From Pseudomonadota bacterium (lineage in GTDB: Bacteria > Pseudomonadota > Gammaproteobacteria > Ga0077536): a stretch of 64,000 nt of DNA. Position numbers and translations under genes: made by a program. The DNA lies in the NCBI GenBank assembly GCA_016719885.1, contig JADJYF010000001.1, positions 414,150 to 478,149 of the forward strand, written 5' to 3'. The notes beneath the pieces are model-generated. The model was not told the DNA's origin and did no database searches. It saw only the letters and a list, made by a program, of their open reading frames with translations. Below are positions 51,237-64,000 of the stretch, in pieces (the stretch's first letter is position 1; the number at the start of each line of letters is the position of its first letter).

Positions 51237-52136
51237 TCAATCGTCGTCGTCGGGCGCGCGCGCGTCGCCCGCGTTGTCCAGCAATTCTTCGGCGAGTTGC
51301 TTCAACTCGTCGAGGATGTCCTCCAGCTCACGCGCCATGATCCAGACAATCAGTTCGTCGGCGCCAGCCGCCGCCACCTGGTCGCGGCCTTCGGCGCTGC
51401 GGAACAGGCCTTCCAGCGCGAAGGGCGCGACGTGGATGCTGCTACGGTCGCGGCCCGCGGCCGCGCAGGCCGCTTCAAGTTCGCGGCAACCGGCCGCGAA
51501 TTCGTCCAGTGAAGACATCACCGGGATCCAGCCCTCGCCCCAAGCGACCACGCGCTTGAACACGCGCGCCGAACCGGAGCTGCCGAACATGATCGGCGGC
51601 CCGGCCTGGGTTTCAGGTTTGGGGTAGGAACGGATGGGTGGGAAGTTGTAATAACGTCCACTGTGGGACGGGGCGTCTTCGCGCCACAGCTTGCGCATCA
51701 CTTCCACGCACTCGCGGGTCTGGGTCCAGCGGTGGTCGAAATCGACGCCCAGGATCTCCGACTCCTCGCGATTCCAGCCGGCGCCGATGCCGAACTGCAC
51801 GCGACCATGGCTGTAGTGATCGACCGACGCCACCTGCTTGGCGAGGATCAAAGGATTGTGTTCCGGAACGAGACAGATGCCGCTGCCGAGCTTGATGCTG
51901 CGCGTGGTGGTGGCGGCGCGCGCCAGCGCAACCCACGGATCCGGCATCTGCCACAGGTAGTCGGGCGGTGGGTTGCCGGGGTCGCCGACGTAATCCGATG
52001 CAAACGACATCGGCATGATGGCGTGCTCCGGCACCCAGTAGGAATGGAAGCCGAGATCCTCGGCGGCCTTGGCCACGATGGCGGGGTCGCCACGCCTATC
52101 GGGCTGGATCTGGAACACCCCGATTTTGAGCGACAC
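51237..52136 (-). CDS. LLM-class oxidoreductase, probably F420-dependent (GTG start)
   Basis: About 300-aa luciferase-like TIM barrel (VSLKIGVFQIQPDRR..., GSGICLVPEHNPLILAKQ, FGIGAGWNREE). It is convergent with and adjacent to the F420 biosynthesis operon. The upstream 340 codons of ORF 51237..53153 are rejected. Confidence 0.65.
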   Translation of the reverse strand: MSLKIGVFQIQPDRRGDPAIVAKAAEDLGFHSYWVPEHAIMPMSFASDYVGDPGNPPPDYLWQMPDPWVALARAATTTRSIKLGSGICLVPEHNPLILAKQVASVDHYSHGRVQFGIGAGWNREESEILGVDFDHRWTQTRECVEVMRKLWREDAPSHSGRYYNFPPIRSYPKPETQAGPPIMFGSSGSARVFKRVVAWGEGWIPVMSSLDEFAAGCRELEAACAAAGRDRSSIHVAPFALEGLFRSAEGRDQVAAAGADELIVWIMARELEDILDELKQLAEELLDNAGDARAPDDDD

Positions 52137-52388
52137 GAGCGACCTCCGCTGCGAACGAAAACGGCCTGCGACGGCGCCACGGGCAAGGCGCATGCATGGG
52201 CCCGGAAAGGGCCGAATAGTACTCGATCCTTTCGCCGGTGACATTGCCGAACCGAGGGTGTCGGCGGTGTGCGCGGCGCTTGCGCCGGCGCGGCCCTTCG
52301 CGGTTACATTAGCCCGCCCGGCGAGGCCGGGTGCTTGCGCCGAATGCATCGACTCGCCGGGCGCGAGACCACCAGCCGCGGATTGTTT

Positions 52389-53150
52389 ATGCCCCGTATA
52401 TCCCTCACCACGCTGTCGCGTATTCCGCTCGTCAAGTCGGGCGACAATCTCGTCGCGATCATTCTCGGCGCCGCCGCCGACGACGGTGTCAGTTTCAGCG
52501 ACGGCGACATCGTGGTGCTGGCGCAGAAGATCGTGTCCAAGGCGGAAGGCCGACTGGTGCCGGTGGCCAGCGTCACGCCGGGTGACGAAGCCATCGAACT
52601 CGCCGCCGCCACCGACAAGGATCCGCGCATGGCGCAATTGATCCTCGACGAAGCGGCCTACGTCATGCGCCGCAAGCCCGGCGTCATCATCGTGCGCCAC
52701 AAGCTCGGGCATGTCGGCGCCAATGCCGGCATCGACCAGTCGAACGTGGAACACGAGGGCGGTGAACAGGCCTTGCTGCTGCCGGTCGATCCCGATGCCT
52801 CGGCGCAGCGTCTGCACCAGGCGCTGAGCGCGGCGGCCGGGTGCCATGTCGGCGTCATCATCTGCGACAGCATGAACCGGCCGTGGCGGCTCGGCACCAT
52901 CGGTGGCGCCATCGGCTGCGCCGGCATCGAAGTACTGGATGACCGCCGCGGCCAGCATGACATGTTCGGCCGCGAGCTCAAGGTCACCATGATCAACCGC
53001 GCCGACTCCATCGCGGCGATGGCCACCCTGCTCATGGGCGAATCGACGGAGCGTACGCCGGTGGCGGTGGTGCATGGCTTCGCGGTCGATGCGCACCACG
53101 GACGCGCCGCCGACATCATCCGTCCGCCGGCCGACGACCTGTTCAACTGA
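52389..53150 (+). CDS. cofE: Coenzyme F420-0:L-glutamate ligase
   Basis: LVKSGDNLVAIIL...GDIVVLAQKIVSKAEGR...RHKLGHVGANAGIDQSN...GVIICDSMNRPWRLGTIGGAIGCAG: the CofE fold pattern. Confidence 0.75.
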   Translation: MPRISLTTLSRIPLVKSGDNLVAIILGAAADDGVSFSDGDIVVLAQKIVSKAEGRLVPVASVTPGDEAIELAAATDKDPRMAQLILDEAAYVMRRKPGVIIVRHKLGHVGANAGIDQSNVEHEGGEQALLLPVDPDASAQRLHQALSAAAGCHVGVIICDSMNRPWRLGTIGGAIGCAGIEVLDDRRGQHDMFGRELKVTMINRADSIAAMATLLMGESTERTPVAVVHGFAVDAHHGRAADIIRPPADDLFN

Positions 53151-53151
53151 C

Positions 53152-54093
53152 ATGGCAAGCTATGTCGCACTGAGCGGTGGCGTCGGTGGCGCCAAGCTGG
53201 CGCTGGGCCTCACCCACCTGCTCGAGCCGCACGCCCTGACCTTGGTAGTGAACACCGGCGACGACTTCGAGCACCTCGGCCTGCACATCGCGCCGGATCT
53301 CGATACCCTGATGTACACGCTGTCCGGCCTCAGTAATACCGAGACCGGCTGGGGGCGGGCGGGGGAATCGTGGCAATGCCTGGACGCGCTGGCCGAACTC
53401 GGCGGCGAAACCTGGTTCCGGCTCGGCGATCGCGACCTGTCGGTGCACCTGCAACGCAGCCTGCGCCTGCGCGCGGGCGCCAGCTTGTCGACGGTCACCG
53501 CCGAACTCTACGCGGCACTCGGCATCCGTCATCGCGCGCTGCCGATGAGCGACCAGCCGGTGCGCACCCTGGTGCATTGCGACGCCGGTGTGCTGGCCTT
53601 CCAGCATTACTTCGTGCGTGAACGCTGCGCACCGCGGGTGAGCGGATTCAGCTTCGACGGCGCGGCGACCGCCAGCGCGGCGCCCGGCGTACTCGAGGCG
53701 CTGCGCGCAAGCGATCTCGCCGGCGTCATCATCTGCCCGTCGAATCCATTCTTGAGCATCGACCCGATACTCGCGGTGCCGGGTGTGCGTGAGGCCTTGC
53801 GCGCTTGCCGCGCGCCGGTGGTGGCGGTGTCACCGATAGTGGCGGGGCTCGCCATCAAGGGGCCGACCGCCAAGATCATGGAGGAACTCGCGCTGCCGCA
53901 GACCGCGGCGGCGGTGGCGGCCCATTACGGCTCGCTCATCGATGGTTTCATACTCGACGAAAGCGACCGCGCGCTGGCCGCGCAAATCGCCTCGACTACG
54001 CTGCGTGTGAGCACCGCGCAGAGCGTCATGGTGACGCTGGACGATAGGATCAATCTGGCGCACACTGCCCTGGACTTTCTCCGTACATTCTGA
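53152..54093 (+). CDS. cofD: 2-phospho-L-lactate (LPPG):Fo transferase
   Basis: [20 protein letters not shown]...[19 protein letters not shown]...[14 protein letters not shown]: the CofD/UPF0052 family pattern. The start ATG is 1 nt after the cofE stop. Confidence 0.8.
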
Positions 54094-54100
54094 AGCCGGC

Positions 54101-54781
54101 ATGTGGGTCGTCGTTCCCGTCAAACGTTTCTCGAATGCGAAGACGCGACTGGCGCCGCTGTTGTCGGCGGCCGAGCGCGAATCCCTGGCGCAGGCCATGT
54201 TGAACGACGTGCTGCGCGCGATTGCCGAGAGTCGGCGCGTGGCGGGCGTGCTGGTGGTGTCGCGCGAAGTGCGCGCCCGTTACTGCGTCGAGCGCATCGG
54301 CGGCTTGTTTCTCGAAGACACGGCGGACGATCTTTCCAGCGCCATCGAATTGGCGGGCGAATGGCTCGCGACCCACGGTCAACGCGGCATGCTGATGATC
54401 CCGGGCGACGTGCCGCTGGTCAGCGGCCGTGAGATCGACGAACTGCTGCTCACCCATCGCGGTGCGCCGGCCGTGACCCTGGCGCCCGACCGTGAACACG
54501 ATGGCACCAACGCATTGGCGGTCAGTCCCGCCGATGCCATCCATTTCGCCTTCGGCAAGGGCAGCTTCGCCAAGCATCGCCAGGCGGCGCTCGACGTCGG
54601 CATCCAGGCACAGGTCGCCTTGCTGCCGGGCCTCGCGCTCGATGTCGACAACCCCATGGATCTGCAGACGCTGTTGACCTATGACAGTGAGACCGAGACC
54701 CTGGCTTATCTATGTGACAGCGGCATCGCGCGCCGCGTCATGCCTCATCACACCAGTGCGCGCGACTTGACCGGCTGGTAG
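54101..54781 (+). CDS. cofC: 2-phospho-L-lactate guanylyltransferase
   Basis: MWVVVPVKRFSNAKTRLAPLLSAAERESLAQAMLNDVL...GDVPLV: a MobA-like NTP-transferase of the CofC type. Confidence 0.75.
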   Translation: MWVVVPVKRFSNAKTRLAPLLSAAERESLAQAMLNDVLRAIAESRRVAGVLVVSREVRARYCVERIGGLFLEDTADDLSSAIELAGEWLATHGQRGMLMIPGDVPLVSGREIDELLLTHRGAPAVTLAPDREHDGTNALAVSPADAIHFAFGKGSFAKHRQAALDVGIQAQVALLPGLALDVDNPMDLQTLLTYDSETETLAYLCDSGIARRVMPHHTSARDLTGW

Positions 54782-54857
54782 AGAAACATGCTGAGCGCAG
54801 CAGTTTTTTTACTCGCCTCGTAAACGACGTCGCCGCCGCTTCACGGTTTTGTAAGTC

Positions 54858-57317
54858 ATGAATTCCATCGCTTCGATACTGGCAGCCGCGGAAGCGGGGC
54901 AGACTCCGGATGATGCGCAGGCCCTGCGGCTGGCCGAATGCGCCGAACTCGGGCCCTTGATGGCGAGCGCCGCACGGCTGCGCGACCAGGGCTTCGGCAA
55001 TGGCGTGACCTATTCGCGCAAGATTTTCATTCCGCTTACGCAGCTGTGTCGCGACGTGTGTCATTACTGCACCTTCGCCCAGGCGCCGAAGCGCGTCACC
55101 GAGCCCTACATGAGCATCGAGGCGGTGGTGGCCTTGGCGCGCGAAGGTCAGCGCCTCGGTTGCAAGGAGGCGCTGTTCACGCTCGGCGAACGGCCGGAGT
55201 TGCGCTACAAGACCGCGCGCGACGCGCTGGCGCGCATGGGCTTCGGCTCGACACTGGAATATCTGCGCGCGGCGGCCGAGGCGGTGTTCAGCGAGACCGG
55301 CCTGTTGCCGCACATGAACCCCGGCACCATGACGCTCGCCGAATGCGAAATGCTGCGCGAGGTGTCGCCGAGCATGGGCATCATGCTGGAGTCGGCGTCG
55401 GAGCGTCTGTGCGCCAAGGGCATGCCGCACCACGGGTCGCCCGACAAGCGGCCGGCGGTGCGCCTCGAAACCCTGCGCAACGCCGGTCGCGCGCGTATCC
55501 CCTTTACCAGCGGCATCCTCATCGGCATCGGCGAAACCCGCCGCGAGCGCATCGAAGCGCTGCTGGCGCTGCGCGCCGTGCACGCCGAGTTCGGTCACAT
55601 CCAGGAAATCATCGTGCAGAACTTCCGGGCCAAGCCGGATACGAAAATGCACGACGCGCCGGAGCCCGACCTCGACGACATGCTGTGGACGCTGGCGGTG
55701 GCGCGCATCGTGTTCGGCGCGCACATGAGCATCCAGGCGCCGCCGAACCTGAGCCCGGGCGCGCTGCCCGAATTGGTTAAGGCCGGCATCAACGACTGGG
55801 GCGGTGTGTCGCCGCTGACGCCGGATCATGTGAACCCGGAAGCGCCGTGGCCGCATCTCGACAAGCTTGCCGCCGACACCGCCGCCGCCGGCAAACATCT
55901 CCACGAACGGCTGACCATCTACCCGCAGTACCTGCGCGGTCCGGCGTCATGGGTGGCGCAGCGTTTCGAGACCCCGTTGCTGCAGATGATCGATGCGGAT
56001 GGCTATCCGCGCACCGACGACTGGTCGCCCGGCGAGGACATGACGCCGCCGCCGGCGGTGGTGGAGGCGATCTCGCGGCGTCCGGCCCGCGTGTCGAGCG
56101 ACGTGGCCGCCATCCTCGCGCGCTGCGAGGCCGGCAAGCTCATCGACGAAAACGACATCGTCAGGTTGTTCCGCGCGCGCGGCGATGATTTCAGCGCCGT
56201 GTGCCAGGCCGCCGATCGCATTCGTCAGCGTGAGAACGGCGACGTGGTGAGCTTCGTCGTCAATCGCAACATCAATTACACCAATGTCTGCTATTTCAAG
56301 TGCCAGTTCTGCGCCTTCTCCAAGGGCAAACTGTCGGAGAACCTGCGCGGCTCGCCCTACGATCTCGATCACGACGAGATCAAGCGCCGCGTGCTGGAGG
56401 CTTGGGAGCGTGGCGCGACCGAGGTGTGCATGCAGGGCGGCATACACCCGCAGTACACCGGCGACACCTACATCGCCATTCTCGACGCAGTGAAGGACGC
56501 CGTGCCGGACATGCACATCCACGCGTTCTCGCCGCTGGAAGTGTGGCAGGGCGCGGCGACCCTGAAGCTGCCGCTGCGCGATTACCTTACGCGCCTCAAG
56601 GACGCCGGTCTCGGCACCTTGCCGGGCACCGCCGGCGAGATCCTCGACGACGAAGTGCGCGCCATCATTTGCCCGGACAAGATCAACACCGCGCAGTGGT
56701 TCGAAGTGATGCGCGCCGCGCACGAGGTCGGATTTCGTACCACCTCGACCATCATGTATGGACACGTCGACAGGCTCGAGCATTGGGCGCGTCACCTGTT
56801 GCGGGTGCGCGACCTGCAGCGCGAGACCGGTGGCTTCACCGAATTCGTGCCGCTGCCCTTCGTGCACATGGAAGCGCCGCTGTATCTCAAGGGCCGCGCG
56901 CGCAAGGGCCCGACCTTCCGCGAATGCGTGCTGATGCATGCGGTGGCGCGACTCGCCCTGCATCCGCATATCCGCAACGTGCAGACTTCGTGGGTCAAAA
57001 TGGGGCACGCGGGCGTGCGCGCCTGCCTCAATGCCGGTGCCAATGATCTGGGCGGCACGCTCATGAACGAGAGCATCACGCGCGCGGCCGGCGCCAGCCA
57101 TGGCCAGGAGACCTCGCCGGAAGAAATGATGGCGATGATCACGGCCTGCGAGCGCACGCCGCGACAGCGCTCGACGGCCTACGAGGCTGTGTCCGACGAG
57201 CGCATCGCCGCCGGGCGCGACGCCGCCGAACTCGCCGAAATCGTCAACACCCCGGCGCGCAAGTACGAACGCGCCGAGCGCCGCGAGCTGCTGCGTTCGC
57301 GTGTCGAGGTCGGCTGA
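54858..57317 (+). CDS. fbiC: Bifunctional Fo synthase (7,8-didemethyl-8-hydroxy-5-deazariboflavin synthase, fused CofG-CofH)
   Basis: 819 aa with two radical-SAM Cx3Cx2C clusters (CRDVCHYCTF in the N-terminal half; CYFKCQFCAF in the C-terminal half), exactly as in fused FbiC. Confidence 0.88.
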   Translation: MNSIASILAAAEAGQTPDDAQALRLAECAELGPLMASAARLRDQGFGNGVTYSRKIFIPLTQLCRDVCHYCTFAQAPKRVTEPYMSIEAVVALAREGQRLGCKEALFTLGERPELRYKTARDALARMGFGSTLEYLRAAAEAVFSETGLLPHMNPGTMTLAECEMLREVSPSMGIMLESASERLCAKGMPHHGSPDKRPAVRLETLRNAGRARIPFTSGILIGIGETRRERIEALLALRAVHAEFGHIQEIIVQNFRAKPDTKMHDAPEPDLDDMLWTLAVARIVFGAHMSIQAPPNLSPGALPELVKAGINDWGGVSPLTPDHVNPEAPWPHLDKLAADTAAAGKHLHERLTIYPQYLRGPASWVAQRFETPLLQMIDADGYPRTDDWSPGEDMTPPPAVVEAISRRPARVSSDVAAILARCEAGKLIDENDIVRLFRARGDDFSAVCQAADRIRQRENGDVVSFVVNRNINYTNVCYFKCQFCAFSKGKLSENLRGSPYDLDHDEIKRRVLEAWERGATEVCMQGGIHPQYTGDTYIAILDAVKDAVPDMHIHAFSPLEVWQGAATLKLPLRDYLTRLKDAGLGTLPGTAGEILDDEVRAIICPDKINTAQWFEVMRAAHEVGFRTTSTIMYGHVDRLEHWARHLLRVRDLQRETGGFTEFVPLPFVHMEAPLYLKGRARKGPTFRECVLMHAVARLALHPHIRNVQTSWVKMGHAGVRACLNAGANDLGGTLMNESITRAAGASHGQETSPEEMMAMITACERTPRQRSTAYEAVSDERIAAGRDAAELAEIVNTPARKYERAERRELLRSRVEVG

Positions 57318-57394
57318 GCGGCCGCCATCATTGGCCCGGCCGTGAGTGCCGGGCCACTCATAATCATGCCTGATTGCATCCTCGGGGGAGGGGA

Positions 57395-58621
57395 ATGATG
57401 GCTGCCTTACCCAACCACATACTCAATGGCTTCCGCGTGCTGGACATGACCCATGTGCTCGCCGGCCCGACCGCGTCGCGGCTCATGGCGGAGATGGGCG
57501 CCGAGGTCATCAAGGTCGAGTTTCCGCCACTCGGCGACGTGGCGCGCATGTTGCCGGCGCACAAGAACGGGCGCAGCGCCTATTACACCCAGCAGAATCG
57601 CGGCAAGTTCAGCATATGCCTGAACGCCAAGACGTCGGAAGGCCGTGCGATCATCACGGACCTGCTGAAGACCGCCGATGTGTTCATCGAGAATTTCGCC
57701 CCGGGCGTGATTGGCCGCATGGGCTTTTCCTGGGACGAGGTGCACAAGATCAACCCGCGCCTGGTGATGTGCTCGATCTCGGCTTTCGGTCAGAGTGGGC
57801 CGCTGTCGTCACTGCCGGGCTTTGACTACATCGCCCAGGCCTACAGCGGCGTGATGGGCATGATCGGCGACCCCGATGGCGCGCCGTCATTTCCGATGGT
57901 GAGCATGGGCGACATCTCGACCGGTGTGCACGCCGCCGCCGCCATCGGCTTCGCGCTGCTGCACCGCGAGCGGGGCGGCGAGGGCCAGTATCTCGACATC
58001 TCGCTGCTCGACGCCTACACCGGCTACCACGAGCTCAATATCCACCTGTACAGCCTCACCAACGGCGAGGTCGAGCCGACCCGCGCCGGCAGCCAGCATT
58101 TCGCGGTCTGCCCGCTGGGCCTGTTCAAGACCCGCGAAGGCTATGTCTGCATCATCGCGCTGCAAAACCAGTGGGCACCGCTGTGCCGCGCCATCGGACG
58201 CCCGGAGTTGGCCGACGACCCACGCTACAACGACAACGCCAAGCGCGTGGCCCGTGCCAGCGACGTGATCGGCATCCTGCAGGCCTGGTGTGACGCGCAG
58301 CCCGATGACGCCGCCATCCTCGCCGCCCTCGAAGCCGAGCGTGTGCCCTGCGCGCCGGTGCTGCGTATCGGCCAGGTGGTGAGCCATCCGCATATGCTGG
58401 AACGGGGCACGGTGCGCGTGGTGAAGGACCCCAAGCTCGGCGAGGTGCTGATGCCCGGCATGCCGCTGCGTTTTTCCGGTTTCGAGCACAACCAGCCGCT
58501 GGAGGCCGCTTTTCTCGGCCAGCACAACGAGGCGGTGCTGACCGGGATGCTCGGCTACGACGCCGCGCGCATCGAAGCGCTGCGCGCCGCCGGCGTGCTT
58601 CATTCGAATGCCGACACCTGA
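57395..58621 (+). CDS. Family III CoA-transferase (CaiB/BaiF)
   Basis: LNGFRVLDMTHVLAGPTASRLMAEMGAEVIKVE and the catalytic Asp region; RBS ggaggg upstream. Confidence 0.85.
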   Translation: MMAALPNHILNGFRVLDMTHVLAGPTASRLMAEMGAEVIKVEFPPLGDVARMLPAHKNGRSAYYTQQNRGKFSICLNAKTSEGRAIITDLLKTADVFIENFAPGVIGRMGFSWDEVHKINPRLVMCSISAFGQSGPLSSLPGFDYIAQAYSGVMGMIGDPDGAPSFPMVSMGDISTGVHAAAAIGFALLHRERGGEGQYLDISLLDAYTGYHELNIHLYSLTNGEVEPTRAGSQHFAVCPLGLFKTREGYVCIIALQNQWAPLCRAIGRPELADDPRYNDNAKRVARASDVIGILQAWCDAQPDDAAILAALEAERVPCAPVLRIGQVVSHPHMLERGTVRVVKDPKLGEVLMPGMPLRFSGFEHNQPLEAAFLGQHNEAVLTGMLGYDAARIEALRAAGVLHSNADT

Positions 58622-58675: not shown

Positions 58676-60352
58676 TTGAAAAAACGATTTAAATTACAGT
58701 ATGAAAAGCTCGGGGTTTGGGCTGTTGGGGGACGAGTGCTAAGAGCATTGCTATTGGCGTGCGCCGTCTCGGCGTGTGGGGGGCAATCCGTCTGGGCGGA
58801 AGAGGCTCCACCTTTGAAAATCGTCGTCAAGACCTACAAGGTCGAGGGCGACAATCCCATTGGCGCTGCCGCCAGTGAGGCGCTGGCGCCGTTCGTCGGC
58901 GAGTTCGATGGCCTCGAACCGCTGTACGCCGCCAAGGATGCCATCAACGCCGCGCTCGCGAGCGGCGGATACCGCTTCTACCGCGCCGTGCTGCCGCCGC
59001 AGGACATCGTCGACGGCGTGGTCACCATCAAGATACTCGCGCTGCCGATCGGCAAGGTGGTGGTGGAAGGCAACAAGCGCGTGTCGGCCGCGGCGGTGGA
59101 GCGCAGCGTGCGCGCCCTGAAGACCGGCGAAGTGCCGAATACCGCCGAAGTGTCGCGTTCGCTGGCGGTTGTCAACGAACATCCCTCGAAGAAAGTGCAG
59201 GTCAATTTCCGCGAGAGCGAGGAGACGCCTGACACCCTCGACGCCGTGCTCAAGGTCGCGGAAGAAAAGCCGTGGTCGGTGTTCGCGCAGATCAACAACA
59301 TCGGCAGTGCCGGGGACGGCGCCTCCGATGTCGCCGCTGGTGGTACCGCTGGCACCGGCCGCACCCGTCTCACCATGGGTGGCCAGTACGACAACCTCAC
59401 GCGTCACGACGACGTGCTGCAAGGCTCGGTCACGACCTCGCCCGAGAACGCCGAAAACGTCCTGCAATACGCCAGTTCCTATCAACTGCCCATCTATCGT
59501 TTGAACGGTTGGCTGACCGGCTTCTACGTCCATTCGGAAGTCGACGTCGACGGCGTGCAGGGCGGCATCTTCGATATCCAGGGCGCCGGCACCTTCTACG
59601 GCCTCAGCTTCAAACACCAGTTGGTGAACATCGGTCGCTACAAGCACAGCTATACGCTGGGCGTGCAGGACCGCCTGTTCGACACCGCCATCTTCACTTC
59701 AGCCAACGGCCTGCGCCTGACGGCGCTCAGCACCAAGGTGCGCAGCCGACCATTCTCGGGACGCTACGACGGCTCCTACTCCTGGTCCAGCACCAGCGTC
59801 GATTTCTACTGGGATGTCAGCCACAACATCGAGGCCGGTAATCACAACAACGCCACGGACTACGCGCTGGTGCGGGCGCCGGCCACGCCGGATTTCACCG
59901 TCGGCCATTTCGGCGCGCTGGTCACGCAACGCCTGCCGCGCGGCTTTGCCGCGCTGGGCCGCATGACCGCCCAGTTGACCGGCCAGGCACTCATCCCCGG
60001 CGAGCAGTTGGGCGCGGGCGGCGTGCACTCGGTGCGTGGCTTCGAAGAACGCACCATCGCCGGCGACAAGGGCGTGATCCTCAATTTCGAATTGTGGTCG
60101 CCGCCGGTCAAACGCCTGCTCGACGCTCGTTTCCTCGGCTTTATCGATGTCGGTCACAAAGCGCTGATCGATCCGGTGGTGGGGCAGCGCCAGAACGATA
60201 CGATTTCCAGTATCGGTCTGGGCGCGAGGTGGCAATGGCGCAAACAGCTGTCGCTGGCTATCGACTATGGACTGCCGCTCGCGAGCGCGGACGGCGAGGC
60301 ATCGGATCGGGGCAATTCGAAATGGCATCTAGACCTTACCTACCGTTATTGA
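58676..60352 (+). CDS. Two-partner-secretion outer-membrane transporter (TpsB; ShlB/FhaC/HecB family)
   Basis: Signal peptide, POTRA region and a 16-strand Omp85-type barrel ending ...KWHLDLTYRY (C-terminal aromatic). Confidence 0.85.
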   Translation: MKKRFKLQYEKLGVWAVGGRVLRALLLACAVSACGGQSVWAEEAPPLKIVVKTYKVEGDNPIGAAASEALAPFVGEFDGLEPLYAAKDAINAALASGGYRFYRAVLPPQDIVDGVVTIKILALPIGKVVVEGNKRVSAAAVERSVRALKTGEVPNTAEVSRSLAVVNEHPSKKVQVNFRESEETPDTLDAVLKVAEEKPWSVFAQINNIGSAGDGASDVAAGGTAGTGRTRLTMGGQYDNLTRHDDVLQGSVTTSPENAENVLQYASSYQLPIYRLNGWLTGFYVHSEVDVDGVQGGIFDIQGAGTFYGLSFKHQLVNIGRYKHSYTLGVQDRLFDTAIFTSANGLRLTALSTKVRSRPFSGRYDGSYSWSSTSVDFYWDVSHNIEAGNHNNATDYALVRAPATPDFTVGHFGALVTQRLPRGFAALGRMTAQLTGQALIPGEQLGAGGVHSVRGFEERTIAGDKGVILNFELWSPPVKRLLDARFLGFIDVGHKALIDPVVGQRQNDTISSIGLGARWQWRKQLSLAIDYGLPLASADGEASDRGNSKWHLDLTYRY

Positions 60353-61689
60353 GCCGCCCGGCGCGGGGCCTGGTCCTGTCGGCGGCGCTGGCGCTGCTGG
60401 CGACGCCGCTGTGGGCGGCCAACAAGGCCGGCGACGTGATGCTCGCCCACGGCGTGGTCAGCGCCCACGTGGCGGGCGGCGCGCCGCACCTGTTGGGCCC
60501 GGGATCAGCGCTCAACGAGGGCGACGTGGTGACCACCGGGCCGCGCAGCGTGGCGCTGCTCAAATTGGCCGACGGCACCAAGATCACCCTGCGTCCCGAG
60601 TCGTCCTTCCAGATTGCGAAGTACGAGGTGGCGGAGAATCGCGAAGAGGGCCTCATGACCCTCTTCAAGGGCGGCCTGCGAGCGGTCACCGGCTTCATGA
60701 GCAAGCGCAATCCGAACGCCATGCGCCTGCGCACCTCGGTGGCAACCATCGGTATCCGCGGCACCGAATTCGACGCGCGCCTGTGCGGCAGCGACTGCAG
60801 CGAGGAAGCGCGGGCCCATTCGACGCCCGCCGGCCGTGCCGGGTTCGTGAAGGGCGATGCCCTGGTGCGCGCGCCAAGCAGCCACGCGCGGCCCTTGAAA
60901 TCCGGCGCGCCGGTCTACAACGGTGACACCGTCATCACCAATGCCGATGCCTTCGCGGTGCTGGTGTTCGCCGACAAGAGCCGCGTGACGCTGATGCCCA
61001 ACACCGAGTTCCGCGTCGAGCGCGTGGAATTCAAGATGGCCGAACCGCAGCGCAGCGAGAGCATCTTCAACCTGCTGCGCGGCGGCTTGCGCGCGGTCAG
61101 TGGCCTGGTCGGCCACAAGGGCCGCGGTACCTACCAGATGCGTACCGCCGTGGCCACGATCGGTATCCGCGGCACCGACTGGACGGCCATGTGCGTGGGG
61201 CCCTGCCAAGCCACGGACCCGAACGCGGCGCCGGGCGGCAATGGCTTCTATTCGCAGGTCAACGAGGGCGCCATCGACGTCAACGGTGGCGAGGTGCAGG
61301 CCGGTGAGACCATATTCGTGGGCAGCACCGGCATGCTGCCGCAGAGCGTGCCGCAACTGCCCGTGCCGATGCCGCCCGATCTGCCGCCGCCAGGTTCGAT
61401 CGAATTCCAGGAACCGCCGCCGGCGCCGACGTCGACCGACCCCGAGAGCGGCCTGTACGTCAGCTGCTATTCCGGTATCTGCGCGGTGCAGACCGAAGAG
61501 AACGAAATCCAGCTCGGCCAAGGCGAGGCCAGCCACGTCGGGAACCAAGGCGGCCCCGCGCAGCAATTGACCGAGGTGCCGCCGTTCCAGGCGGAAGACC
61601 CGATTTTCCATGCTGTCGAGGTCGGCGGACAGCTCGAGCAGTTGAATGAGACGCTGAACAACGGAGGTCTCGAATGCACGGTTCACTGA
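60322..61689 (+). CDS. Secreted tandem FecR-domain protein with Pro-rich linker and Cys-containing C-terminal domain
   Basis: Signal peptide MASRPYLPLLSRPARGLVLSAALALLATPLWA. Two FecR-like repeats (TLFKGGLRAVTGF...TIGIRGTEFD and NLLRGGLRAVSGL...TIGIRGTDW). Linker PVPMPPDLPPPGSIEFQEPPPAPTS. The start is uncertain and overlaps the tpsB 3' end. Confidence 0.65.
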   Translation: MASRPYLPLLSRPARGLVLSAALALLATPLWAANKAGDVMLAHGVVSAHVAGGAPHLLGPGSALNEGDVVTTGPRSVALLKLADGTKITLRPESSFQIAKYEVAENREEGLMTLFKGGLRAVTGFMSKRNPNAMRLRTSVATIGIRGTEFDARLCGSDCSEEARAHSTPAGRAGFVKGDALVRAPSSHARPLKSGAPVYNGDTVITNADAFAVLVFADKSRVTLMPNTEFRVERVEFKMAEPQRSESIFNLLRGGLRAVSGLVGHKGRGTYQMRTAVATIGIRGTDWTAMCVGPCQATDPNAAPGGNGFYSQVNEGAIDVNGGEVQAGETIFVGSTGMLPQSVPQLPVPMPPDLPPPGSIEFQEPPPAPTSTDPESGLYVSCYSGICAVQTEENEIQLGQGEASHVGNQGGPAQQLTEVPPFQAEDPIFHAVEVGGQLEQLNETLNNGGLECTVH

Positions 61690-64000
61690 AAATCACCCGT
61701 CGCCGCGGCGGCCAGGTCCTGTCATTCGTCACAGGCCTGATCGCAAGCGTCGGCGCGAGTGCGAACCCGCAAGGCGCGCAGGTGGTCAGCGGCTCGGCCG
61801 TGTTCGCCAACCCCACGCCCCAGACCCTCGAGATAACCAACTCTCCGGCGGCGGTCCTCAACTGGCAGTCGTTCGATATCGGCAAGGGCGAGACCACGCG
61901 CTTCATACAGCAGAATGCCGCCAGCGCGGTGTTGAATCGCGTCACCAGCGGCAACAGCTCGGAGATCCTCGGCAGCCTCGTTTCCAACGGTCACGTGTTC
62001 CTGATCAATCCGGCCGGCATCCTGATCGGCCGCGATGGCTCGGTCGATACCGCCGGCGTGGTGCTGTCGACCTTGCAGATCACGGACCAGGATTTCCTCG
62101 CCGGACGGTTCAAGTTCGAAGGAGACTCGGCCAGCGGCACGGTCACCAACCACGGCTACATCAAGACCGCGCCCGGTGGCGAGGTGGTATTGATAGCGCC
62201 GCGCATCGAGAACGTTCCCGAAGCGGGGCGCTCCAGGAGCGGCCTCATCGAAAGCCCCAACGGTGACCTGATCCTGGCCGCCGGCACGGCCATCACCATC
62301 GCCAGCCTGGACGACCCGGACATCACCTTCGACGTGCGCGCGCCGGACAACGAAGTCGTCAACCTCGGCAAGCTGCTCGCGAGCGGCGGTACCGCCAGCA
62401 TCCTGGCCGGCACCATTCGTCATTCCGGCGAAATCAACGCCGACACCGCCAGCGCCGATGGCACGGGCCGCATATCGCTGAAGGCCTCGAATCGCATCGC
62501 GCTGGCCGAGGGCAGCCTGGTGCGCGCCTCGGGTGGCAAGGGCGAAGACGGCGGCGACATCAGCATCGATGCGCGCAACCAGGACAAGAACGCGACCATC
62601 GATGCCCTGGGCGCGGTGCGCGCCGACGGCGAGAACGGCGGCACGGTGATCGTGCGCGGCAACAATCTGCTGGTCGACGGCATCGTCTCGGCGCGTGGCG
62701 GCGAGGTGGGCGGCAAGATCAATATCCGCTCGACCGAGGCCACCATCGCCACGGTCAACGCCACGCTGCAGACCTACACCATCGAAGGTAAGGGCGGGCG
62801 CATCGCCGTCGACGGCGGCAAGAGCACCTTCGTCTCGGGCAGCCTGCGCGCCAGCGGCGAGCGCGGTGGCAGTGTCGCGGTGCTCGGTGACGAAGTGACC
62901 CTGGCGGCGGCGCGGATGCGCGCCGACGGTGACTCGGGCGGTGGTCGGGTGCGCGTCGGCGGTGGATTCCGCGGCGGTGAAGACCTGCATGCCGCCGAAC
63001 GCACAATCGTCAACGACACGACCACCATCAACGCCAGCGCGCGCGCCAATGGCGACGGCGGTGACGTGGTGGTGTGGGCTGACGGTACCACGCAGTTCGC
63101 CGGCAGCATCTCGGCGCGCGGCGGCGTGGACGGCGGCGATGGCGGTCGCGTTGAAGTGTCCGGCAAGAACGGCCTCGGCTTCTCCGGCGAGGTCGACGTC
63201 ACTGCCCGCAACGGCGCCGAAGGGACGCTGTTGCTCGACCCGAAGAACATCCGTTTCACGTCTGAGGAATTGCCGGCCGCCCCGACCAAGCTGCTCGACC
63301 CGCACCCCGGCACCGATAATTTCTTTGGCGATCGCGTCGATTACTTCGACGCTTTCGGCAACCGCGTTTCGTCCTTCAACGGCGTCAGTGATGCGACCAC
63401 CGTGGTGGTCTACGATCCTGATGACGACTTCGGCGGTACCAACGCCGGCGCGGTGTATGTCTACCGCCTGTCCGATGGCGCCCTGTTGAGTGAGCTGCAC
63501 GGTGTGAACAACACCTCGGCGAGCGACCAGGTCGGCAACGAATTCCTCAACGCGTTTGCCTTCAACGGCCGGCATTTGCTGCGCTCACGCCAGTGGGGCA
63601 ACGGCGCAGGAGCCTTGACCGTGTTCGACCCGGTCAATGGCACCAGCGGTGCGGTCGACGCCAGCACCAGCCTGGTCGGCGCCAATGCGGGGGACAACAT
63701 CGGCAGCAGCTCGCTGCAAGTGCTCGGCGCCAATTCGGTGGCGGTGCTGAGTCCCAATTTCAATTCCAGCGCCGGCGCGGTCACCATCGTGACCGCGGGC
63801 ACCCTGCGCGGTACGGTCTCCAGCGGCAACAGCCTGGTCGGCGCCAATCCCGGTGACTTGCTGGGCAATTCCATCACCCATCTCGGCGGCACGAACTGGG
63901 CGGTGTCCAGCGCCAACGCCGGGCTAGGCTCACTCACGGTGCTGCACGAGGGTGTACGCACCACCGGCGTCGTCAGCGCGAGCAACAGCGTGGTCGGCAG
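61674..64000 (+). CDS. Two-partner-secretion exoprotein (TpsA; filamentous-hemagglutinin-like), 5' part only; continues beyond the window
   Basis: N-terminal TPS domain: ...VFANPTPQTLEITNSPAAVLNWQSFDIGKGETTRF...SAVLNRVTSG...GSLVSNGHVFLINPAGILIG..., then Gly/Ala/Val-rich beta-helix repeats to the window end. This ORF is not in the supplied track because it has no stop in the window. Confidence 0.8.
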   Translation, partial: MHGSLKITRRRGGQVLSFVTGLIASVGASANPQGAQVVSGSAVFANPTPQTLEITNSPAAVLNWQSFDIGKGETTRFIQQNAASAVLNRVTSGNSSEILGSLVSNGHVFLINPAGILIGRDGSVDTAGVVLSTLQITDQDFLAGRFKFEGDSASGTVTNHGYIKTAPGGEVVLIAPRIENVPEAGRSRSGLIESPNGDLILAAGTAITIASLDDPDITFDVRAPDNEVVNLGKLLASGGTASILAGTIRHSGEINADTASADGTGRISLKASNRIALAEGSLVRASGGKGEDGGDISIDARNQDKNATIDALGAVRADGENGGTVIVRGNNLLVDGIVSARGGEVGGKINIRSTEATIATVNATLQTYTIEGKGGRIAVDGGKSTFVSGSLRASGERGGSVAVLGDEVTLAAARMRADGDSGGGRVRVGGGFRGGEDLHAAERTIVNDTTTINASARANGDGGDVVVWADGTTQFAGSISARGGVDGGDGGRVEVSGKNGLGFSGEVDVTARNGAEGTLLLDPKNIRFTSEELPAAPTKLLDPHPGTDNFFGDRVDYFDAFGNRVSSFNGVSDATTVVVYDPDDDFGGTNAGAVYVYRLSDGALLSELHGVNNTSASDQVGNEFLNAFAFNGRHLLRSRQWGNGAGALTVFDPVNGTSGAVDASTSLVGANAGDNIGSSSLQVLGANSVAVLSPNFNSSAGAVTIVTAGTLRGTVSSGNSLVGANPGDLLGNSITHLGGTNWAVSSANAGLGSLTVLHEGVRTTGVVSASNSVVG

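Follow-up and report, generated by a model that had tools for sequence, protein, structure and literature searches.

What does a FecR-domain protein do in the middle of a two-partner secretion (TPS) operon? TPS is commonly presented as a minimal pathway of just two proteins, and the retention and release of its giant exoproteins are understood for a few pathogens only. The question is raised by the last part of a 64,000-nucleotide stretch of gammaproteobacterial DNA (assembly GCA_016719885.1, contig JADJYF010000001.1, positions 414,150 to 478,149; hereafter the window), in which three genes follow one another on the plus strand from about 58.6 kb to the window end: tpsB for the transporter, a gene for a 455-residue protein with two FecR domains, here called fecR2, and tpsA for the exoprotein. 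We describe the gene content of this locus, its synteny in relatives, the FecR fold of the middle protein and the statistics of the cysteines at the ends of FecR2 and TpsA. FecR2 is very probably a dedicated third subunit of the TPS system. Both FecR2 and TpsA carry a lone cysteine at the C-terminus, a match that suggests a covalent tether between the two in the periplasm.

The three-gene locus had been noticed in an initial annotation made from the sequence alone, and this description holds: the motifs GGLRAV...TIGIRGTEFD and GGLRAV...TIGIRGTDW, the proline-rich linker and the cysteine-containing tail of the middle protein are all present, and the overlaps of 31 nt between tpsB and fecR2 (60322-60352) and of 16 nt between fecR2 and tpsA (61674-61689) are exact. 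A sequence scan found neither a terminator-like site nor a sigma-70 consensus inside the three genes. With tpsA and tpsB on one strand, in a chain of overlapping reading frames and with no terminator-like site between them, a single transcription unit is predicted.

Thirty-one relatives of FecR2 were aligned, and the alignment was used to fetch 79 genome loci with flanks of up to 10 kb (loci are cited below by L numbers). Synteny was scored by tblastn with the TpsB and TpsA of the window in the 48 loci that have at least 2.5 kb on both flanks; crude calls of the longest open reading frame (ORF) gave antisense or over-extended frames, such as a "793-aa" FecR protein in L037, and tblastn coordinates and database gene calls were used in their place. 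In 44 of these 48 loci there is a TpsB homologue no more than 10 kb away on the same strand, and in 33 it is directly adjacent. The N-terminus of a TPS domain was found in 33 of the 48, and tpsA exceeds the 10-kb flank in several of the loci that show none (e.g., L018). The linkage of tpsA and tpsB is conserved in the relatives, and the trio spans three classes, the Beta-, Gamma- and Deltaproteobacteria, in four gene orders: tpsB-fecR2-tpsA in the gammaproteobacterial group of the window, tpsA-fecR2-tpsB and tpsA-tpsB-fecR2 in Betaproteobacteria, and tpsB-tpsA-fecR2 in Limnobacter and others. The order seen in the window, which the initial annotation had singled out as unusual, is thus not distinctive, since it varies among homologous loci. 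Its suggestion of a dedicated third TPS component is borne out by these counts, and homologues of the middle gene do co-occur with TPS genes elsewhere, contrary to what a chance insertion would predict.

Further loci examined one by one showed the same trio in every TPS-linked context, in unrelated chromosomal surroundings, and the three genes therefore appear to move as one module. A deltaproteobacterial locus has the same trio with a triple-FecR protein and a terminal cysteine on both proteins. Two sets of neighbours were considered as parts of the system and rejected as housekeeping synteny, namely the gammaproteobacterial upstream block (5-formyltetrahydrofolate cyclo-ligase, UPF0149, PepP and two UbiH-type genes; ygfB-pepP-ubiH) and the Comamonadaceae flanks (DUF3683 oxidase, HIT, and the ubiE/Tim44-like/SCP2/ABC1 set). 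As the lineage-conserved neighbours are housekeeping genes, the module is the trio itself. Relatives of FecR2 number more than 3,000 in a database search, and among 1.84 billion cluster representatives (clusters at 50% identity) the family accounts for 324 clusters at E ≤ 1e-30 and 4,013 at E ≤ 1e-10; plasmids yielded one weak match only and no annotated cultured example. With one exception, the FecR-linked TpsBs group in a clade of their own in a crude neighbour-joining tree, apart from eight TpsBs taken from ordinary TPS loci. Two Burkholderiales metagenome-assembled genomes (MAGs) carry between tpsA and tpsB much longer FecR proteins of 1141-1210 aa (L063 9899-13531 and L066 9851-13276), with two N-terminal FecR modules, about 800 residues without a Pfam match and a terminal cysteine (...NMCVIR and ...NMCSIR).

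The second line of evidence concerns cysteines. FecR2 has seven of them, the pairs C155/C159, C295/C299 and C382/C387 and a lone C452, which lies four residues from the C-terminus (codon 61675..61677, plus strand, overlapping the ATG of tpsA) and is conserved without exception in the 31 aligned homologues. Across the family, a cysteine stands within 5-8 residues of the end in 105 of 106 close homologues, in 125 of 133 distant cluster representatives and in 57 of the 58 copies in the fetched loci, and the total number of cysteines is odd in 102 of the 106 and 122 of the 133, made up of local CxxxC pairs plus one lone cysteine. The FecR-linked TpsAs are nearly free of cysteine (0.26% overall), and yet 36 of 39 distinct TpsA C-termini have one among the six final residues, which in 31 cases is the last residue but one. 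Sequences typical of these ends are ...SVDCN, ...NLECN, ...LICR, ...PVCQ and ...AVCK. Of the three exceptions, two (L069, L078) are frameshifted ORFs whose true ends read ...VLMCF and ...PEKC, and the C-terminus of the third (L008) lies outside the fetched locus. After this correction, all 38 complete FecR-linked TpsAs have a terminal cysteine, that is, one cysteine in the last four residues at the end of a charged tail. Charged residues make up 27% of these tails as against 10% of the protein body, glycine and hydrophobic residues are depleted, and by its composition the tail is linker-like. The mature TpsB of the window contains no cysteine and the partner TpsBs of FecR-linked loci are essentially cysteine-free, which leaves TpsA as the only partner within the cluster for the lone cysteine of FecR2.

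As controls we used 12 TpsAs from annotated plasmid TPS loci without an adjacent FecR gene. One of these 12 has a cysteine in its last six residues, as a member of a pair; a C-terminal cysteine pair occurs in five, and six have no C-terminal cysteine. The difference between 36/39 FecR-linked TpsAs (uncorrected count) and 1/12 controls gives p = 8.5e-8 in a Fisher test. The paired cysteines of the controls (CLDESGC, CLVVNGQHGC, CGC, CSDGEEC) lie within about 30 residues of the end, on plasmids of E. coli, Salmonella, Caballeronia and Ensifer (L086 11818-18012, L088 14851-20877, L089 14920-18474, L093 1059-6923 and 13851-18194). They resemble the C-terminal arrangement of the Haemophilus exoproteins HMW1 and HxuA, which suggests that an anchor of this type, in cis, may be common outside Haemophilus. 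The FecR-linked TpsAs do not have the two cysteines in the last 20-30 or so residues that mark the HMW1/HxuA type; their terminal cysteine is single, and in many of them it is the only one in the protein.

The few FecR relatives that lack the terminal cysteine bear on where the C-terminus of FecR2 is likely to be. Among the fetched loci, L076 alone lacks it, and there are no TPS genes around it. Four remote representatives (P0168, P0208, P0218, P0234) have no terminal cysteine and carry a C-terminal OmpA-like barrel instead; in the two OmpA-fused relatives with readable contigs, no TPS genes were found alongside, one of the two having a short downstream context. OmpA barrels have periplasmic termini. 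As the barrel fusion replaces the terminal cysteine, the C-terminus of FecR2 is placed at the outer membrane, on its periplasmic side. Judged by these sequences, the FecR2 module ends in one of two ways, with a predicted outer-membrane barrel of its own or with a lone cysteine and a cysteine-terminated TpsA plus TpsB encoded alongside. The readable OmpA-fused double-FecR genes are at L098 5979-8126 and L099 2497-5745, with an 8-strand barrel that ends in ...GAGLVWxF; in L099 the gene is followed by one for a TPR/SlipAM protein and by one for a second FecR protein.

The protein itself is encoded at 60322..61689 on the plus strand. Its ATG, a convincing start being one of the points on which the initial annotation had made its reading depend, is backed by a conserved MA- N-terminus in the 31 aligned homologues. 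A signal peptide of 32 residues (60322..60417; aa 1-32), read from the sequence and with the same layout in homologues, would be cleaved between ...ATPLWA and ANKAG; reading of the N-terminus revealed neither a lipobox nor a transmembrane anti-sigma segment. FecR module 1 (60424..60801; aa 35-160; best Pfam stretch 68-153) ends at the invariant CxxxC pair C155/C159, and module 2 (60832..61212; aa 171-297), the start of which aligns with the retention, or cell-surface anchoring, domain of the MpIBP/LapA type, leads into C295/C299. A third beta-rich region follows, then the proline-rich linker (61351..61449; aa 344-376), a small beta domain with the C382/C387 pair and a flexible tail, ...GGLECTVH. 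The whole protein matches Pfam FecR (PF04773) in two stretches with E 3e-21, the two modules are 38% identical to one another (E 2e-23), and Pfam finds no C-terminal STN-type subdomain. NCBIfam retention_LapA (NF033682) also matches in two stretches, its 51.4 bits exceeding the cut-off of 50 marginally.

An AlphaFold2 model of FecR2 has a mean pLDDT of 82 and is nearly all beta, with low confidence in the signal peptide (helix 12-26) and the last 20 or so residues and a dip around residues 360-370 in the proline-rich linker. Its top Foldseek matches in the PDB are 4M0N and 6OVK_R (PupR), followed by 5IX9, the cell-surface anchoring domain of the Marinomonas RTX adhesin MpIBP (TM 0.78, rmsd 1.2 Å over 63 columns), which is also the sole PDB sequence match of the FecR2 family profile (E 1.5e-4). 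The structure prediction that had been suggested for the 455-aa protein alone thus yields a FecR fold, and the FecR-like repeats seen by eye are supported both by profile and by fold.

The two partners of FecR2 are those of a type Vb system. The tpsB gene occupies 58736..60352 on the plus strand, with an alternative start at 58676. From the GTG at 58736 its product has 538 aa, and from the upstream TTG at 58676, the longest ORF, 558 aa; the GTG is the more likely true start, because it has a GGGGGA Shine-Dalgarno sequence and gives a normal signal peptide and an N-terminus, MLRALLLACAVSAC..., that is shared with the relatives L080 and L081. The signal peptide, MLRALLLACAVSACGGQSVWA, is followed by EE, by POTRA domains and by a 16-strand barrel of the ShlB/FhaC-type Omp85 kind that ends in ...LDLTYRY; Pfam reports ShlB at 5e-19 (69 bits, cut-off 22.7) and POTRA_2 at 3e-9, with weak Omp85 and POTRA matches. 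The tpsA gene starts with an ATG at 61674 behind GGAGG and runs on the plus strand to 64000 and past the window end. Its 775 codons within the window encode a Sec signal peptide, a TPS domain (aa 30-297) with NPAG in the NPNG-type motif ...VFLINPAGILIG, a beta-helix extension and DUF5650 repeats (Pfam TPS 9e-28, DUF5650 1.6e-13; NCBIfam adhes_NPXG 1e-21), and include no cysteine.

What lies beyond the window can be read from L080, a close relative with 85-92% nucleotide identity and the same synteny with genes for coenzyme F420. Its syntenic TpsA, 73% identical in amino acids, has 2671 aa, in the range of 2,400-2,700 aa or so of close relatives, and consists of the TPS domain and 23 DUF5650 repeats. 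It ends in ...KEGETSVDCN, and its only cysteines are at positions 2603, 2606 and 2670. The initial annotation had proposed that tpsA be read beyond the window for a toxin or other C-terminal effector domain; in the full-length L080 protein there is none, only TPS and DUF5650. An MFS gene follows on the opposite strand in L080, and the operon therefore ends with tpsA. Between window and L080 (61674-64000 and 11353-13850, respectively), TpsA is 73% identical with indels, as compared to 92% for TpsB and 90% for FecR2, a difference that fits quicker evolution of a surface-exposed repeat protein.

How might the three proteins work together? In the mechanism that we propose, for a three-component subtype of type Vb secretion, TpsB would export the giant repeat exoprotein TpsA, and FecR2 would be a soluble periplasmic protein with its two FecR-fold modules. 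After the bulk of TpsA has been exported, its charged tail would stay in the periplasm, or within or below the TpsB pore, where the single cysteine at the penultimate position of TpsA could form an intermolecular disulfide with C452 of FecR2. Folded FecR2 cannot pass the TpsB pore and would therefore act as a stopper supplied in trans, such that TpsA would stay displayed on the cell surface. We are evenly divided on whether this whole chain of steps, a periplasmic anchor in trans with FecR2 disulfide-linked to a TpsA tail threaded through TpsB, is correct.

Several points weigh against it. We infer the disulfide, its partners, the periplasmic location of the TpsA tail and the anchoring function from sequence, and for the window even the C-terminus of TpsA, which lies beyond its end, is taken from the syntenic homologue at 73% amino acid identity. 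The control set is small, with 12 proteins, and comes from plasmids only, and a few FecR-linked TpsAs have even cysteine counts. Each lone cysteine could instead form homodimers or bear another modification. The OmpA-fused relatives hint at a separate function for FecR2, over and above that of a stopper, and CHASE2 cyclases adjoin seven loci, which points to signalling. Furthermore, ten Comamonadaceae loci have fecR2-tpsB with the terminal cysteine (...NQCK, ...NQCR) and no tpsA within 10 kb, so that FecR2 can persist without a TpsA encoded in cis; the partner of such an orphan FecR2 is possibly a distant tpsA product or a second FecR2.

Orphan pairs were seen in L020, L024, L028-L030, L035, L036, L038, L043, L055, L070 and L072, from MAGs and isolates of Ramlibacter, Caenimonas and Variovorax. 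They are located between a DUF3683 FAD-oxidase/HIT gene and the ubiE, Tim44-like, SCP2 and ABC1 (UbiB-type) genes, a site at which Rhodoferax saidenbachensis (L046) carries a tpsA of 1321 aa.

The other roles that have been or could be assigned to FecR2 have to be weighed against the tether. The initial annotation had thought of a chaperone, a sensor or a co-secreted partner, none of which accounts for the lone cysteine that FecR2 and TpsA each have at the C-terminus. A chaperone or secretion assistant would bind unfolded TpsA or the POTRA domains of TpsB non-covalently, keeping the substrate export-competent or gating the transporter, with no link to the finished exoprotein. The direct adjacency of tpsB in 33 of the 48 loci is in favor of this, as are the overlapping frames, which are consistent with translational coupling, the persistence of FecR2 with TpsB where tpsA is absent nearby, and a periplasmic beta-rich fold of the type that engages partner domains in PupR-PupB (6OVK). 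However, it does not explain why a lone terminal cysteine is nearly universal on both proteins and lost in relatives without TPS neighbours, and the TPS systems characterised so far manage without a dedicated chaperone (review PMC5422565); we regard this role as improbable. Still less probable is co-secretion, by which FecR2 would be exported through TpsB or released with TpsA, as an extracellular domain disulfide-linked to the distal end of the exoprotein. The matched cysteines would agree with this, and where fecR2-tpsB occurs without tpsA, TpsB might have FecR2 itself as its substrate; but neither Pfam nor NCBIfam finds a TPS domain in FecR2, its three local cysteine pairs of the disulfide type and its compact predicted fold would form in the periplasm, and the OmpA-fused relatives have the FecR2 part N-terminal to a barrel with periplasmic termini. 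That FecR2 is an anti-sigma regulator of the TPS operon, as VreR of the PUMA3 system is for PdtAB, has in its favor the Pfam FecR domain, here present in two copies, and the precedent of a FecR-type anti-sigma system that regulates a TPS system in P. aeruginosa (PMC2729926). FecR2, however, has a 32-aa cleavable-type signal peptide in place of the N-terminal cytoplasmic anti-sigma domain and single transmembrane helix of such regulators, and neither Pfam nor NCBIfam detects a domain at its N-terminus. A gene for an extracytoplasmic function (ECF) sigma factor, for which the initial annotation had advised a search, gave no tblastn match in the window with an approximate RpoE sequence or the sigma-70-family protein of L083, which is a weak test, and neither an ECF sigma factor nor a TonB-dependent transducer was found among the Pfam-annotated neighbours of the trio in L080, L081 and L082. 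A cell-surface signalling unit of the FecIR type was rejected on these grounds, lacking both an ECF sigma factor and the anti-sigma architecture. The gene has been kept together with TPS genes across dozens of lineages and its start is backed by homologues, which excludes an unrelated insertion or a frame artefact, and we consider this whole group of explanations, regulator or accident, to be highly improbable.

A role in signalling, in place of the anchor or on top of it, is a rival to be taken seriously, though we still think it unlikely. FecR2 would here be the transducer in the periplasm through which the TPS machine of the outer membrane (TpsB and surface TpsA) is connected to a sensor in the inner membrane, typically a CHASE2 cyclase or kinase. 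Such a relay is compatible with the tether, which would serve as its input arm; only the purpose differs. A CHASE2 adenylate/guanylate cyclase gene directly adjoins the trio in the seven loci mentioned (of 79), in at least three gene orders, and Limnobacter loci also carry genes for a patatin that binds cyclic nucleotide monophosphates (cNMP), a class-II phosphodiesterase-like protein and a cNMP-binding redox protein. Secreted FecR-domain proteins have been linked to CHASE2 sensors elsewhere, in a LysM-FecR and CHASE2 kinase operon (Burkholderia/PA4035; PMC5192318) and in CHASE2-cyclase clusters of Campylobacterota with FecR-domain proteins (PMC9239204). On pSymB of S. meliloti, the gene immediately preceding that of a CHASE2 cyclase is a 1219-aa ORF in which a FecR domain (aa 85-179) and TPR repeats (aa ~400-600) come before the C-terminal half. 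This ORF is presumably NsrA, beside CyaK, an assignment by position and length and not by annotation, which counts against its use here; NsrA is an outer-membrane beta-barrel receptor, with the barrel portion at residues 600-1200, that is experimentally required for signalling to CyaK (PMC7529298). The barrel-fused FecR2 relatives without visible TPS genes also speak for a role of the module that is independent of TpsA retention. On the other hand, some 70 of the 79 loci have no adjacent sensor; no gene for a CHASE2 cyclase, phosphodiesterase or cNMP-binding patatin was found in the 64-kb window, nor does a CHASE2 gene adjoin the trio in L080 and L081, which are close relatives, or in L082; and the contact between FecR2 and CHASE2 is putative in every system. 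Taken further, TpsA that passes through the TpsB pore and is disulfide-linked to FecR2 might form a trans-envelope signalling wire, with FecR2 reporting adhesin binding or mechanical load to CHASE2 receptors, whose outputs include cyclic AMP and cyclic GMP among others, an idea that we find rather doubtful. If it were true, signalling at the cell surface would gain a new class, in which a secretion pore takes the place of the TonB-dependent transducer, and it would supply the long-missing physiological input for CHASE2 domains.

The cyclic-nucleotide genes form an island in L054, L058, L060, L061 and L064 (Limnobacter and a related MAG) and in L050, L051 and L057: cNMP-binding patatin-like phospholipase, class-II phosphodiesterase-like metallo-beta-lactamase-fold (MBL) protein, tpsB, tpsA, fecR2 and CHASE2 cyclase, with a cNMP-binding pyridine-nucleotide-disulphide oxidoreductase/ferredoxin protein encoded on the opposite strand. 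The pSymB pair is at L100 3205-6864 and 6864-8813 (S. meliloti 1021, NC_003078.1 ~1567228-1572836), where the 1219-aa ORF is unannotated. A cluster of FecR-domain protein, TPR protein and adenylate/guanylate cyclase also occurs on a plasmid of Ensifer sp. PDNC004 (L089 29230-30432), about 11 kb from the TPS pair there and beside an NHLP bacteriocin export system.

How does a periplasmic tether in trans compare with known systems? The closest are HMW1/HMW1B and HxuA/HxuB of Haemophilus influenzae, in which the exoprotein is held by a periplasmic disulfide loop at its C-terminus; as in our proposal, bulk that depends on a disulfide blocks the TpsB pore (PMC5422565). The HMW1/HxuA plug, however, is a small intramolecular loop between two cysteines of the exoprotein, whereas here a single TpsA cysteine would be joined to a separate 45-kDa FecR-fold protein encoded by a third gene. 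As given in a preprint, the retention module of the LapA/MpIBP type serves a type 1 secreted adhesin as its plug in the periplasm (bioRxiv 10.1101/198937). The likeness is that of a periplasmic beta module holding a giant repeat adhesin in an outer-membrane pore, and the FecR2 modules match this module in fold and, with the NCBIfam score barely past its cut-off, in sequence. The differences are the pathway, type 1 secretion through LapE, a TolC-like pore, as opposed to TpsB, and the position of the module, which in LapA-type adhesins is the N-terminal part of the RTX adhesin itself and here is a separate protein. LapA is released by LapG proteolysis, with LapG and LapD as the controlling pair, and neither this locus nor its relatives have RTX, LapG or LapD genes.

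With NsrA-CyaK and the secreted FecR/CHASE2 systems, the likeness is a periplasmic FecR domain tied to an outer-membrane barrel component, with a genetic link to a CHASE2 receptor. In NsrA a single polypeptide includes its own barrel, and there is no TPS partner, whereas the locus in the window has TpsB and TpsA, two FecR modules in a protein with a soluble tail and terminal cysteine, and no CHASE2 gene nearby. FecR, PupR and VreR share the PF04773 fold, and it is the periplasmic domains of this group (4M0N, 6OVK) that are the best structural matches to the FecR2 model; unlike them, FecR2 is a duplicated, soluble periplasmic version without a cytoplasmic anti-sigma domain or membrane anchor.

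Nor is a third gene in a TPS locus unheard of. The view of the initial annotation that TPS operons are canonically pairs is overstated, because HMW1C/EtpC, BcpO and HxuC are third genes that are needed for exoprotein function (PMC5422565), and an EtpB locus was seen among the annotated TPS loci that we examined. HMW1C/EtpC is a cytoplasmic glycosyltransferase, BcpO a small lipoprotein or cytoplasmic protein and HxuC a TonB-dependent receptor, and FecR2 differs from all of them in its FecR fold and its matched terminal cysteine. The initial annotation knew of no characterised example, and we likewise found no FecR-domain protein described as a structural TPS partner in the searchable literature, where full-text coverage is incomplete and the result is absence of evidence only; the one published overlap of FecR and TPS that we found is the PUMA3 anti-sigma system regulating a TPS operon in P. 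aeruginosa (PMC2729926).

The elements of the proposal are thus already known singly: TPS, third genes, C-terminal disulfide anchors, FecR-fold plugs and links between FecR and CHASE2. The locus adds a widespread TPS subtype of environmental proteobacteria with a conserved third subunit, and its matched lone C-terminal cysteines offer a simple, testable mechanism for surface retention by a stopper in trans. FecR-fold modules would then serve as periplasmic plugs or transducers in LapA adhesins, in FecR/PupR, in NsrA/CHASE2 and now in type Vb secretion. Should the link to CHASE2 hold, it would also provide a route to the inputs of CHASE2 receptors.

The remaining observations concern the DNA around the operon and the control loci. 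Promoter and terminator scans were empty, and the entire 64-kb window contains no tRNA, tmRNA or Rfam family at the gathering threshold. Two of the plasmid loci, from Ruegeria conchae (L085) and Caballeronia sp. M1242 (L088), have ordinary tpsB-tpsA pairs within type VI secretion clusters, adjoining genes for CHAT-domain or caspase-family proteins. Directly upstream of the TPS operon, the window carries a cluster for coenzyme F420 biosynthesis (51237-58621), with the same order in L080. It consists of genes for a luciferase-like oxidoreductase (~51237-52136, minus strand), a CofE-type F420 ligase (~52395-53150), CofD (~53150-54093), CofC (54101-54781), a fused CofG/H FbiC (54858-57317) and a family III CoA-transferase (57374-58621). 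F420 genes are uncommon in Proteobacteria.

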